42,004 bases of DNA from an uncultured Methanosarcinales archaeon (GTDB taxonomy: Archaea; Nanobdellota; Nanobdellia; Woesearchaeales; UBA10107): positions 1 through 42,004 of the forward strand of contig CAZNFC010000002.1 in NCBI GenBank assembly GCA_964572885.1, read 5' to 3'. Of this stretch, positions 12,617 through 15,754 are shown in pieces (the first letter of the stretch is position 1; each line of letters opens with the position of its first letter). The notes under the pieces were generated by a model. The model saw only the letters and a program-made list of their open reading frames with translations. It had not been told where the DNA came from and searched no databases. The translations under genes and the position numbers were made by a program.

Positions 12617-15600
12617 ATGAAAAAAACTTTAATGATTTTTTTATTGTGCAGTTTTCTAATCTCTGTAGCTTTTGCAGAAAATACAATAGTAGTGTCAGAT
12701 ACTGTAAAGCCTGATATACAGGCAACATTCAATGATACGGTATTGTTGAAGGCATATAACCTGACATATGTTGTTACCGGGGACAATTTGATTTTAGATA
12801 ACAGCACTTCAGACAACATATCATTTATGTTTAAACCGACGACATCTTTAGACAACGGGTTTTATTATTTCATCGTAAGCGCAGAAGACAAGATAGGGAA
12901 TCCCAAGGAATTCAGGGAGAATGTAATTGTAAATGTCAACGAGACCTCAATATTTTTTGTAAATCCAAGATTAGGAATTTCAACAAAGCCAGTGTATGAC
13001 ATAATCTTAGGCACTTCCAGGAATGCAAACTGCACTTGGTCAACTCAGGATGTTGATTTCAATCAAGGAACATCTACGACAGGGATAAGCACTCTGAGCC
13101 ATACGATAAGTAATTTCGGTCCATCGAGAGATATAGATTTGGCAGAAGAGACAACTTCAGTATATGTACCATTCTGGGTGAAATGTCAGGATACCCTTAA
13201 CAGGATCGTATCTCAAAAACTTTTGACAGCTTATGATTCTACAAAACCAAACATAGAAAGAATAACAATAAGTCAAAATCCAGTCACAAGAATACCTCCT
13301 GCAACGACTATAACTGCCTATGTTGATGATAAATCCGTCTGCCACATATCAGGTTCCGGATTAAATAATCAATTATTTTCCGGCCAGGACAGGGATGATA
13401 TAACGACCTATTCATTTACCCCATCATATACTATAAATTATGCGCCAGCAGATTCAAGCATAAATGGAGCTAAGACTTATACTGTGTTTTGTGAAAATAG
13501 AGCTGACGTCCCTAGTGACACCCAAACAATAACAGTCAATGTTAATATTGCGCCAGCTTTGACTATTAACCCTATATCACCAAAAAGATTTGTAGCAGCA
13601 AATCCTGTCAGCTTTCAAGTAGAGACAAATAAAGTTGCTGATTGTGATTTGACATTACAGGGAACGCTGATACCTTTGACATCATCTCAAGGAGGATATC
13701 TGCATACTTATTCCACAACATTAAGTCAAAACAAATCATATACATATACTTATACATGCAGAGATGTTATAGGAGGAGGATTTCCTGTTTCACAGAATTA
13801 CGTTCTTGATTTTGATTTAACAAAACCAATAAACACAACAGTTGAAGCAAATGCATGCAAGTCAGATACTGTAACATTGAGTTTAGCTTCTAATGACCAT
13901 GAATCAGGGATATTAGGATTTAATTATTCAATGTCAGGTCCGGGTGTATCAGTTCCATGGACATTTGCAGGCGGACCATCTCCTGCAACTGTACAGGTAA
14001 CTAATCTTAATTTATCGACAACAGGGACTTATTCTGTACAGACAGTATCATTAAACGGCGCTGGAGCAGTTTCAGATTTGAAGACAGCGGCATTCACATT
14101 CAATCCAAATGCAACTATTTGCCTTGAAAAAACCCCTCCAAGAATAACAATAAAACTTAATGACACTCAATTCGGAGGAAAAAAAGTCACTTTAATATGC
14201 ACAGATGATGAGTCAGGTTGTTTACCTGGTAGCATTAAATACGGATTATCAAGCACTTCAAATTGCACAGCTACCACGATAGGGAATGAAACAGTACTTC
14301 TGAAGCCGCAATATCTATGTTGGGAAGCTCAGGATAAAGCATTGAATAAAGCAAATGGAACACAATTCATACAATTCACTGCAGTTAAAGGATCCCAGTT
14401 CTTACTTCCTTTAGGTTCTGTATGTACTTCTGATTCTGACTGTTCAGATAATTACTGTTTCAATAAGATATGCACCAAGCCTTTATGCACAGATAGCGTA
14501 AAGAACGGATTTGAATCTGATGTTGACTGCGGCGGTGGGTCATGCAATAGTTGTGACATAGGAAAGAAATGCAACGAAGACAAAGACTGTTCCACTAATT
14601 CATGTGATTCAAGCACTAAAATATGTCAGATTACTTCATGCACAGATTCTATTAAAAATGGATTCGAAACAGATGTAGATTGCGGAGGAAAAGATTGTTC
14701 ATCATGCATTGTTGGCAAATCTTGTACAGCTAACTCGGACTGCAGTTCTAACTCCTGCCAATTCGGAAGCTGTGTAAAAGGAGAGCAGACTTTCGAGGAA
14801 TGGGCAAAATCAAATAATATTGATCCGACAAACAAAGATGGAGATGCCGATAAAGATGGTCTAAGCAACTATCAGGAATTTTTGCATAAAACGGATCCAA
14901 ATAAAGCAGATACTGACGGAGATGGATATTCTGACGGGGAAGAAGTTGCAGCAGGAACAGACCCTCTTAATAACTTAAGTTTCCCCGAGACATCTCTTTA
15001 CAAAATCACACTTCTCATCATATCTTTAATCCTTATATTAGTCGGAGTTTTGTTTATGTTCTATTTTAAGATAGATCAGACAACGTCATTGAATATAATC
15101 GTTATAGGAGGAGTCGCATTACTGTTCGCAATCATTGACTGGCTTCTTTTCAAACTTCCAAATGCAGTATTGATTTCATTAGGATTAATCGCATTATTAA
15201 GTTCAGGATATATAGTATATGGAAAAAGAACTACAATAGTCCCTAAATTGACAGGAAAACCGTCAAGAGTTCAAACCACTGCAAGATCACAACAACAGGG
15301 AACTTTCTCGGCGCAGCAGGAGAATCGTCCTGAAGTAAGAAAGGAAGACATAGAAGCGACAAGATCAATGATAGAGATGATAAAAAAACAAAGAGAAGAA
15401 AGAGAAAATAAAAGAGAAGAATTGTTCAAGAAGTTCGGCTCATCAGATAAGACAGAAAAGAAAAAAGAATCATTGATTCCTCTCAAAACAACTAAAAATA
15501 TTGAAAAATCATTACCATACATTCCGGAAAGAAAAGAAGAGTCAATATTCGACAGGCTAGGAAGAGCATTCGGTGGAAAGACCATAGAAAGATTAGAGAA

Positions 15601-15754
15601 ATTAGGGAAAGGCGACATGGGGGATTTAGAAAAGTTAGGTCAGAGAGGTCAGAGAAACAAGTCAATCGAAAAACTAGGAAGATTGAAAGAATCGAAGATA
15701 AAAAGCCTCTCAGAACTCGAGAAGAAAGCATCAGAAAGTAAAAGGAAGAAATGA
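12617..15754 (+). CDS. Giant (1045 aa) membrane-anchored surface protein: Sec signal, Ig-like modules, duplicated Cys-rich module, TSP3-like Ca-binding repeats, 3 TM helices, charged cytoplasmic tail
   Basis: The N-terminus MKKTLMIFLLCSFLISVAFA|ENT looks like a Sec signal peptide. Ig-like openers are DTVKPDI, DSTKPNI, DLTKPIN, EKTPPRI. Two tandem CTDS[VI]KNGFE[ST]DVDCGG...C modules follow. Asp-rich repeats (DPTNKDGDADKDGLSNYQE...DTDGDGYSDGEE) are thrombospondin-type-3-like. Three hydrophobic helices follow (ITLLIISLILILVGVLFMFYF, IIVIGGVALLFAIIDWLLF, AVLISLGLIALLSSGYIVYG), then a K/E/R-rich tail of about 175 aa. Confidence 0.9.
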   Translation: MKKTLMIFLLCSFLISVAFAENTIVVSDTVKPDIQATFNDTVLLKAYNLTYVVTGDNLILDNSTSDNISFMFKPTTSLDNGFYYFIVSAEDKIGNPKEFRENVIVNVNETSIFFVNPRLGISTKPVYDIILGTSRNANCTWSTQDVDFNQGTSTTGISTLSHTISNFGPSRDIDLAEETTSVYVPFWVKCQDTLNRIVSQKLLTAYDSTKPNIERITISQNPVTRIPPATTITAYVDDKSVCHISGSGLNNQLFSGQDRDDITTYSFTPSYTINYAPADSSINGAKTYTVFCENRADVPSDTQTITVNVNIAPALTINPISPKRFVAANPVSFQVETNKVADCDLTLQGTLIPLTSSQGGYLHTYSTTLSQNKSYTYTYTCRDVIGGGFPVSQNYVLDFDLTKPINTTVEANACKSDTVTLSLASNDHESGILGFNYSMSGPGVSVPWTFAGGPSPATVQVTNLNLSTTGTYSVQTVSLNGAGAVSDLKTAAFTFNPNATICLEKTPPRITIKLNDTQFGGKKVTLICTDDESGCLPGSIKYGLSSTSNCTATTIGNETVLLKPQYLCWEAQDKALNKANGTQFIQFTAVKGSQFLLPLGSVCTSDSDCSDNYCFNKICTKPLCTDSVKNGFESDVDCGGGSCNSCDIGKKCNEDKDCSTNSCDSSTKICQITSCTDSIKNGFETDVDCGGKDCSSCIVGKSCTANSDCSSNSCQFGSCVKGEQTFEEWAKSNNIDPTNKDGDADKDGLSNYQEFLHKTDPNKADTDGDGYSDGEEVAAGTDPLNNLSFPETSLYKITLLIISLILILVGVLFMFYFKIDQTTSLNIIVIGGVALLFAIIDWLLFKLPNAVLISLGLIALLSSGYIVYGKRTTIVPKLTGKPSRVQTTARSQQQGTFSAQQENRPEVRKEDIEATRSMIEMIKKQREERENKREELFKKFGSSDKTEKKKESLIPLKTTKNIEKSLPYIPERKEESIFDRLGRAFGGKTIERLEKLGKGDMGDLEKLGQRGQRNKSIEKLGRLKESKIKSLSELEKKASESKRKK
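14480..14778 (+). repeat. Tandem duplication of a ~50-aa Cys-rich module inside the 12617-15754 CDS
   Basis: PLCTDSVKNGFESDVDCGGGSCNSCDIGKKCNEDKDCSTNSCDSSTKICQ is followed directly by TSCTDSIKNGFETDVDCGGKDCSSCIVGKSCTANSDCSSNSCQFGSCV. The Cys positions are conserved between the two copies. Confidence 0.8.

Follow-up and report, generated by a model that had tools for sequence, protein, structure and literature searches.

Background

Large secreted, cysteine-containing 'S-layer-like' proteins or adhesins with a C-terminal transmembrane (TM) anchor have been described in archaeal type IV pilus loci, for example those of arCOG05471 (Makarova, Koonin & Albers 2016, PMC4858521). They were found in Thermoproteales and other cultured groups, their role is presumed to lie in the envelope or in adhesion, and no conserved cytoplasmic tail was reported for them. 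Here we analyze a protein of 1045 amino acids (aa) encoded in a 42,004-nucleotide stretch of DNA from an uncultured archaeon of the order Woesearchaeales (GenBank assembly GCA_964572885.1, contig CAZNFC010000002.1, positions 1 to 42,004 of the forward strand; this entire stretch is referred to below as the window). Compared by description only, it shares with the arCOG05471-type proteins the signal peptide, the cysteines, the C-terminal anchor and the location with pilin genes. It departs from their description, which has a single C-terminal TM helix, in possessing three TM helices, although most of its own relatives have one, and in that the most conserved hallmark of its family is a tail of 129-344 residues with a helix and a tandem motif. 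Since C-terminally anchored Cys proteins in pilus loci are a known theme (PMC4858521), the protein is not a new kind of thing; the conserved tail module, consisting of the helix and the tandem motif, appears to be undescribed. We favor, with moderate confidence, the reading that the protein is the fixed, non-pilin membrane anchor of a pilin-like attachment apparatus, and that its tail serves to dock a cytoplasmic partner in a multivalent manner.

The machines of type IV filaments also contain bitopic alignment or scaffold proteins, such as PilN/PilO and GspL/GspM in bacteria and ArlX in the crenarchaeal archaellum, and PilN binds PilM through a short conserved cytoplasmic peptide. The likeness to these lies in their being membrane proteins that are encoded with filament genes and link outside parts to the cytoplasmic motor. 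Unlike the protein considered here, they have an N-in topology, small external domains and no sequence similarity to it, whereas it displays a huge adhesin-like ectodomain and its gene does not lie beside genes for the ATPase or platform. Eukaryotic type I immunoglobulin (Ig)-superfamily receptors (contactin/NCAM, RPTP sigma/delta and gp130) offer a further likeness, in the form of a signal, a string of Ig/FN3 domains, a TM anchor and a cytoplasmic tail, and the tails of these receptors work through short linear motifs. This is a generic similarity of fold, with 10-16% identity and a template modelling score (TM-score) below 0.2 over the whole chain, and is an analogy only; the archaeal tail shows no homology to theirs and contains no catalytic or known adaptor-binding domain. 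At the domain level the protein is also a true member of the bacterial TSP3-repeat surface proteins (PF18884), in which the shared repeat amounts only to a 65-residue stalk and is uninformative on the tail.

Woesearchaeota and other DPANN archaea are abundant, uncultured and thought to live attached to hosts. Among the products of their near-universal pilin-like operon, the tail-bearing family alone extends into the cytoplasm. Its simple and strongly conserved repeated motif, a peptide of ~14 residues, is a concrete handle for finding an intracellular partner and a sequence signature with which hundreds of unnamed giant proteins could be annotated.

Results and Discussion

Sequence features of the conserved tail

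The tail spans residues 869-1045 (177 aa) and contains 48 K+R as against 29 D+E. Together with the membrane segment preceding it, it is made up of the following features:

14993..15223, + strand: three TM helices (residues 793-815, 821-846 and 849-869), from hydropathy and the helices of the structural model
15224..15331, + strand: variable basic/polar linker 1 (residues 870-905), with 19% mean pairwise identity and a predicted local distance difference test score (pLDDT) of 51-57 or lower
15332..15439, + strand: conserved tail helix (residues 906-941), ..ED-I-x-AT-x-x-MIEMIKKQ-ER/K-rich stretch..LFKKFG, with 46% mean identity
15440..15541, + strand: variable K/E/P-rich linker 2 (residues 942-975), with 22% mean identity and low pLDDT
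15542..15688, + strand: four tandem motif copies spaced by 12-14 residues, with matrix matches at residues 978, 990, 1004 and 1017
15689..15754, + strand: helical polybasic C-terminus (..SELEKKASESKRKK) and stop codon, the polybasic end being kept in most members of the family

Among the clusters matched by the piece with the TM helices and tail (see below), mean pairwise identity differs markedly between regions (Ig-like 0.37, TM 0.42, linker 1 0.19, helix 906-941 0.46, linker 2 0.22 and motif region 0.38), and the tail can hence be described as two conserved elements joined by fast-evolving linkers. In the first of these, F937 and F940 are invariant, and AlphaFold2, supplied with a 21-sequence alignment of tails, predicted a 33-residue helix (909-941) with a pLDDT of 90-96. 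An ending of the LFxxFG type, as counted by eye, is present in 23 of 32 tails and degraded in the remaining 9, among them those of loci L018, L109, L111, L115, L116 and L118.

The copies in the second element read IFDRLGRAF (977-), IERLEKLGK (990-), LEKLGQRG (1004-) and IEKLGRLKE (1017-), and the region is predicted as short helices of moderate confidence (pLDDT 56-81). The pattern [FILMV][DES][KR]L is encountered 5 times in this tail against 0.19 expected, a count that none of 20000 composition-preserving shuffles reached. An iterated position-specific matrix derived from 32 tails yielded the family consensus K-K-E-D-[AVI]-F-E-K-L-[SG]-K-[LI]-x-K, in which the Leu is invariant to 99% and the Phe is found in 63%. 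There are 103 copies of the motif in the 32 tails against 0.72 in shuffled ones, with at least one copy in 31 of the 32 (L113 has none), and our protein is the sole open reading frame (ORF) of its genome with 2 or more matches. The '(I/L)E(K/R)LG' repeat of the present protein is a local variant of the family motif [ED]-D-phi-F-E-K-L-[SG]-K-[LI] (phi = hydrophobic residue). An earlier reading of the window, made from its letters alone (the sequence-only reading), had already pointed to three TM helices, a K/E/R-rich tail of about 175 residues and these motifs; hydropathy peaks and AlphaFold2 helices agree with the first, the tail is indeed basic over its 177 aa and the motifs, at residues 977-1024, stand out statistically as given above.

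The motifs are amphipathic, with a hydrophobic moment of 0.43-0.65, nearly neutral and of low mean hydrophobicity, and their acidic residues are conserved, features that suit protein binding better than lipid binding. Membrane-targeting helices like those of MinD or SepF are an unlikely description of them on the same grounds of near-neutrality, conserved Asp/Glu and low mean hydrophobicity. A reading of the tail as a folded repeat domain is unsupported, as the 21-sequence alignment raised the confidence for the 33-residue helix only and the predicted template modelling score (pTM) was 0.26. Sequence searches of Pfam, NCBIfam and PDB with four tails, with the tail profile and with an extra C-terminal domain of certain relatives (see below) gave nothing significant; the weak matches to an EF-hand pair, DED/CARD, winged helix and LRR are at the level of chance. 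The family motif can also be written as phi-x-x-[KR]-L-x-x-[LI]-x-K, and was compared in this form with the MIM1 motif, [DE]xxLxx[RK]LxxL[KR]. We reject a MIM1/MIT relationship of the ESCRT-III-Vps4 type for now, as PF04212 finds no match at E <= 0.1 in the 98.9%-complete genome.

Some members of the family (L018, L019, L025, L113, L115 and L118) extend the tail by a small helical domain that occupies the C-terminal ~55-90 residues. It consists of 3-4 repeats of ~18 residues with the pattern phi-F-x-E-phi-L-x-x-L-x-x-x-K-I-[ST]-K-x-D, the core of which resembles the F-E-K-L motif, and it has no significant match in Pfam or PDB.

Membrane segment and topology

Conservation of the TM region in 12 full-length homologues (alignment A2) includes P848 and G864-Y865. 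The last TM helix always ends in G-x-G-Y-phi-x-Y followed by K/R, which is a hallmark of the family, and in most other families of the order this helix is the only one. The three-helix form is seen in the genus of our archaeon and in one other family (L014, L024). Given that the ending of the last helix is constant, this form looks like the single-helix form with two helices placed in front. The present instance is a compact three-TM member of the tail-bearing family.

Topology was judged from independent lines of evidence, namely the signal together with the TM count, the cysteines, the N-x-S/T sequons, the charge and the relatives. A cleavable Sec signal combined with an odd number (three) of TM helices puts the C-terminus inside. 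In the 12 homologues, the ectodomains contain 4.5% Cys and 2.1 sequons per 100 residues and are net acidic, whereas the tails are devoid of Cys over a total of 2219 residues, have 0.27 sequons per 100 residues and are positively charged (net +14 to +37). Furthermore, in most other families of the order the homologous tails follow a single TM helix, which leaves no ambiguity of topology in a signal-bearing protein. The signal and odd TM count, the positive-inside rule, the contrast in cysteines and sequons and the single-TM relatives concur in placing the tail on the cytoplasmic side.

Distribution of the tail across the order

An exhaustive phmmer search of 1.84 billion representative proteins with the piece containing the TM helices and tail matched only 14 clusters, all of them about 1000-1130 aa in length or fragments. 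A word-indexed protein search with tail residues 900-1045 had the query itself as its sole match, because the tail is too divergent for 5-mers to be shared. In searches of genomes, each of the five genomes of the genus gave a strong match, and weaker matches, confined to the tail, came from other families. The loci of these other families encode proteins in which a variable ectodomain is followed by a single TM helix and then by a P/K-rich linker, a helix that terminates in LF-x-x-F-G/E, a K/E/P linker and 1-5 copies of the motif. Over the family as a whole the tail measures 129-344 residues.

A profile of 11 tails (A3, at a threshold of E <= 0.001) matched 48 of 301 genomes of the order, and a profile of the pilin-like protein encoded downstream (A4) matched 277 of the 301. 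The tail match forms, in 36 of the 48 cases, the C-terminus of a long open frame on the same strand, 0-1.5 kb upstream of the A4 gene, and these frames encode 929-3065 aa, apart from those of 235 and 446 aa that are truncated by the end of a contig. This agreement in position validates even the weak matches. Twelve genomes without a match to the tail profile were sampled, and each was found to encode, upstream of the A4 gene, a protein of >900 aa with one TM helix and a K/E/R/P-rich tail; motifs are present in 11 of these 12 proteins. The sequence-only reading had made its case depend on a tail that lies inside the cell and is kept in homologous loci, and the tail is both placed inside and retained far beyond the close homologues.

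We defined the family by a TM end of the form G-x-G-Y-phi-x-Y plus basic residues, a helix ending in phi-F-x-x-F-G/E, at least one motif and a gene directly upstream of an A4-type pilin. Our protein shows all four features, and 32 examined loci from many families of the order show them wholly or mostly. In eight informative genomes from other orders of the same class (loci L120-L130), the A4 gene is preceded instead by a gene for a Sec-signal protein without a TM helix or tail, which is 1100-1320 aa long where the full ORF is in the locus and ends in an Ig-like domain. From this replacement in the sister orders, it follows that the tail-bearing protein upstream of the A4 gene is a hallmark of the order. 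The sister-order protein begins with '..QVCCE..' in 4 of the 5 cases in which the N-terminus could be read, recalling the N-terminus of the 2056-aa protein of the window (6437-12607), and BLASTP at 1e-3 found no similarity between the two.

One of the genomes with an orthologue (42% identical), OZ246410.1 (locus L030), is a 774-kb single contig syntenic with the window. It is labelled Methanosarcinales, yet its gene content and nearest relatives are of the Woesearchaeota type, and the label is probably wrong.

Operon context and pilus machinery

The ORF (12617..15754, + strand, 1045 aa) begins with an ATG 10 nt past the stop codon of the 2056-aa gene upstream and shares an ATGA overlap with the gene downstream, which together place it inside an operon. 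The downstream gene is the constant neighbor of the family:

15751..16299, + strand: 182-aa protein with a class III signal (pilin-like), joined by the ATGA overlap and with A4 orthologues

It directly follows the tail-bearing gene in 36 of the 48 genomes found with the tail profile and in all 12 of those sampled in addition. The operon combines about 15 different pilin-like genes with genes for giant proteins. In the cluster, which extends from ~3258 to 26576, almost all other proteins have a pilin-like N-terminal helix, the exceptions being the 5'-truncated first ORF and the Sec-signal 2056-aa protein; the last protein of the cluster bears an MltA-type 3D domain. A hydropathy scan of the 18 ORFs of the cluster confirmed that the 1045-aa protein is the only one with a clear C-terminal anchor and a large cytoplasmic part, as had been noted previously from the sequence alone. 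The only other C-terminal hydrophobic segment in the cluster belongs to a 286-aa pilin-like protein (19419-20279), which has weak Gly/Ala-rich hydrophobic stretches at residues 212-241. Archaeal markers within the window are RadA, RPA, topoisomerase VI, RIO kinase and ribosomal protein S2, and the source genome comprises 743,840 bases and is 98.9% complete.

This genome encodes a T2SSE-type ATPase of 713 aa, at a contig end (contig C55:1-3463), and an A24 prepilin peptidase. PF00482, which covers the platform proteins PilC/TadC/ArlJ, matched neither the 1045-aa protein nor anything else in its genome. In a complete genome of the same genus, a gene for a 755-aa polytopic, platform-like protein overlaps the end of the ATPase gene (L009:5814-11460). 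This polytopic gene escapes PF00482, and its presence behind the ATPase gene, along with the position of our archaeon's own ATPase gene at a contig end, leads us to reject the three-TM region as a substitute for a missing platform protein. The pilus-type ATPase is unusually long, with 713-756 aa, of which ~420 residues lie ahead of the T2SSE core. Beside its gene, two conserved coiled-coil proteins (~142 and ~189 aa) are divergently encoded in both genomes, and are candidate partners of the tail.

DPANN archaea keep the ATPase and platform genes together and the pilin genes elsewhere, according to a recent survey (PLoS Genet 2026, PMC13705601). The present arrangement, an operon of class-III-signal proteins with the ATPase and platform encoded elsewhere, resembles the Epd-type ('system 1') pili found in methanogens and the type IV filament genes scattered over DPANN genomes. 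A tail-bearing anchored component is not described in the consulted passages of the survey.

Functional interpretation of the tail

The tail probably docks something inside the cell, given that it is conserved across the whole order. On the reading that we favor, the ectodomain would be exposed on the cell surface and take part in attachment to a host or a surface, together with the operon's pilin-like proteins and giant adhesins, and the charge of the tail would stop the anchor from slipping through the membrane under pull. The repeated motifs are predicted to dock a cytoplasmic partner multivalently, candidates being the assembly ATPase or platform of the pilus, a scaffold or further molecules of the same protein, and the outer assembly would in this manner be tied to the cell interior. 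This reading takes the protein to be a membrane glycoprotein with the N-out/C-in topology established above. The sequence-only reading had likewise suggested an anchor of the extracellular assembly or a connector to cytoplasmic components; within the cluster the protein is indeed the single non-pilin member anchored at its C-terminus, and the cytoplasmic connection stays conjectural.

Several observations weigh against a docking tail. No partner of the tail was identified, and the genes for the ATPase and platform are not linked to the operon of the tail protein. Beyond its one confident helix, the structural prediction for the tail is of moderate or low confidence and shows no compact fold (pTM 0.26), and the tail matches no Pfam or NCBIfam family and no solved structure. 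In the sister orders the pilin gene is present with no tail-bearing protein encoded at this position, from which it follows that the pilin-like system in itself does not require the tail.

The main rival is that the same anchored adhesin has a tail without any specific partner, acting as a charged stopper that resists pulling and perhaps lying on the inner leaflet by means of its amphipathic helices. A net charge that is strongly positive in all members, the polybasic end of most of them, the fast evolution of the linkers, the range of tail lengths from 129 to 344 residues, the want of a compact predicted fold over most of the tail and the amphipathic character of the motifs (hydrophobic moment 0.43-0.65) are all in its favor. 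However, a stopper requires charge rather than sequence, yet the invariant Leu, the Phe seen in 63% of copies and the flanking acidic residues are kept across the order, and the helix ending in LFxxFG is conserved as strongly as the ectodomain. The motifs, near-neutral, with Asp/Glu and of low mean hydrophobicity, are also unlike membrane-targeting helices. We therefore regard a purely passive tail as unlikely, though it deserves to be kept in mind.

A second alternative, which strikes us as decidedly improbable, is an S-layer-like envelope protein, such as a SlaB-like wall or stalk, that merely shares the operon with the pilins and stands outside their apparatus. Archaeal envelope proteins typically show a Sec signal, Ig-like domains, sequence rich in Cys and sequons and a TM anchor at the C-terminus, such proteins have been described in type IV pilus loci (Makarova et al. 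2016, PMC4858521), and Foldseek matches include the S-layer protein Sap. Translational coupling and strict adjacency to one pilin-like gene across the order argue for a closer association than a shared operon, and the strong variation of the ectodomain in length (929 to over 3000 aa) and domains is that of adhesins and not of lattice proteins. S-layer anchors are also not known to possess a long conserved cytoplasmic tail.

Similarly improbable is an outside-in signaling receptor, in which binding of a ligand or host, or force, would alter the three-helix domain and tail so that a cytoplasmic factor is released or recruited. In overall architecture the protein equals the type I Ig-family adhesion receptors, which supply the top Foldseek matches (contactin, RPTP and gp130), the tail has the character of linear motifs, and Asp841 in the second TM helix is invariant in the four sequences of alignment A1, although not in all 12 homologues. 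Against this, no signaling domain and no linkage to a kinase or phosphatase was found in the tail or operon, and most members of the family have a single plain TM helix.

The weakest proposal, that TM2 and TM3 are one long segment, giving two membrane passes and an extracellular K/E/R-rich region, can appeal to the short TM2-TM3 loop of ~4 residues (KLPN) with its Lys, but is very hard to sustain against the invariant Pro of that loop and the two separate helices of the model, the homologous tail in single-TM relatives, the absence of Cys from 2219 tail residues as against 4.5% outside, the 8-fold depletion of sequons and the positive-inside rule.

Returning to the docking tail, we consider it rather doubtful that its partner is the pilus motor; if this were true, a fixed structure on the surface and a type IV filament machine would be coupled in a new way. 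Speculatively, the tail could be the archaeal counterpart of the tails of eukaryotic adhesion receptors, with the F-E-K-L helices binding an oligomeric cytoplasmic machine multivalently and coupling an order-specific surface organelle across the membrane, either mechanically or in a regulatory capacity. In that case the helices would most plausibly bind the pilus ATPase, at its unusually long N-terminal region, or a scaffold that forms rings, and host contact outside would be linked to motor activity or cell physiology, a combination that, taken as a whole, we offer only tentatively.

Signal peptide and ectodomain architecture

The part of the protein that precedes the membrane segment comprises the following features:

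12617..12676, + strand: Sec-type signal peptide (residues 1-20, ...VAFA followed by EN after the cleavage site), with a hydropathy peak at residues 7-25 and an AxA-type cleavage site kept in homologues
12683..14371, + strand: about six Ig/FN3-like beta-sandwich domains (residues 23-585), all-beta, with an AlphaFold2 pLDDT of 80-90
14402..14779, + strand: Cys-rich modules, with a partial copy (596-621) and two full copies (622-672 and 673-721), 28 of 51 positions being identical between the full copies
14792..14986, + strand: TSP3-type Asp-rich Ca-binding repeats forming a membrane-proximal stalk (residues 726-790), matched by Pfam TSP3_bac, with a model pLDDT of 74-90

The N-terminus, MKKTLMIFLLCSFLISVAFA followed by EN, is of the Sec/SPI type with an AxA site. 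In a class III (pilin) signal, a short basic leader is followed by a peptidase site (K/R-G/A-x) and a hydrophobic N-terminal helix, the last of which is retained in the mature protein; the KGQ/KAQ plus helix pattern of the neighboring proteins is absent from the 1045-aa protein, and the NCBIfam class III models do not match it. Archaeosortase signals occupy only the last ~25-35 residues of a protein, in which a signature motif precedes a single TM helix and several basic residues. Our protein continues for 177 residues after its last TM helix, contains no PGF-, PEF- or PIP-CTERM motif and has no NCBIfam CTERM match.

The structural model of the entire protein was built on the 12-sequence alignment. 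The Foldseek matches of the ectodomain in PDB are only generic Ig/FN3 strings (contactin-2, RPTP sigma, gp130, the GhpA grappling hook and the Sap S-layer protein). One Ig/FN3-like domain bears a family motif, D-x-E-SGI-x-G-F/Y-NYS, which was used as a search pattern. Across the family, the length and domain content of the ectodomain are highly variable (929 to over 3000 aa). The TSP3 repeats, which have a mean identity of 50% among homologues, are recognized by TSP3_bac (PF18884) with 57.9 bits (E = 8.5e-16) in two stretches within residues 733-785, above the gathering cut-off of 25 bits. The Sec-type signal, Ig-like modules and Ca-binding repeats had all been proposed from sequence inspection and are upheld by the N-terminal hydropathy peak, by AlphaFold2 and Foldseek and by the TSP3_bac match, respectively, and the duplicated Cys module noted then, which lies at 14480-14779 in the present analysis, is augmented by the partial copy in front of it.

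The Cys module has the consensus C-x-D-x-[IV]-K-NG-F-E-[ST]-D-V-DCGG-x-x-C-x-x-C...DC-x-[ST]-N-x-C, which no Pfam family matched. Homologues have three full copies, and residues 596-621 are what is left of such an additional copy. In alignment A1, the present protein lacks the first half of the first module (14402-14479) relative to its three closest homologues, a gap of ~20 columns, and the homologue P0002 lacks the end of the third. The number of modules is evidently flexible. A locus search with the full-length alignment retrieved mostly bacterial proteins, with which the Cys module is the only common part. Many proteins of Myxococcota, Bradymonadia and Bdellovibrionota (loci L039-L107), which are largely predatory bacteria, contain this module with 40-50% identity, and it may represent a widespread unannotated extracellular module or one exchanged between domains of life.

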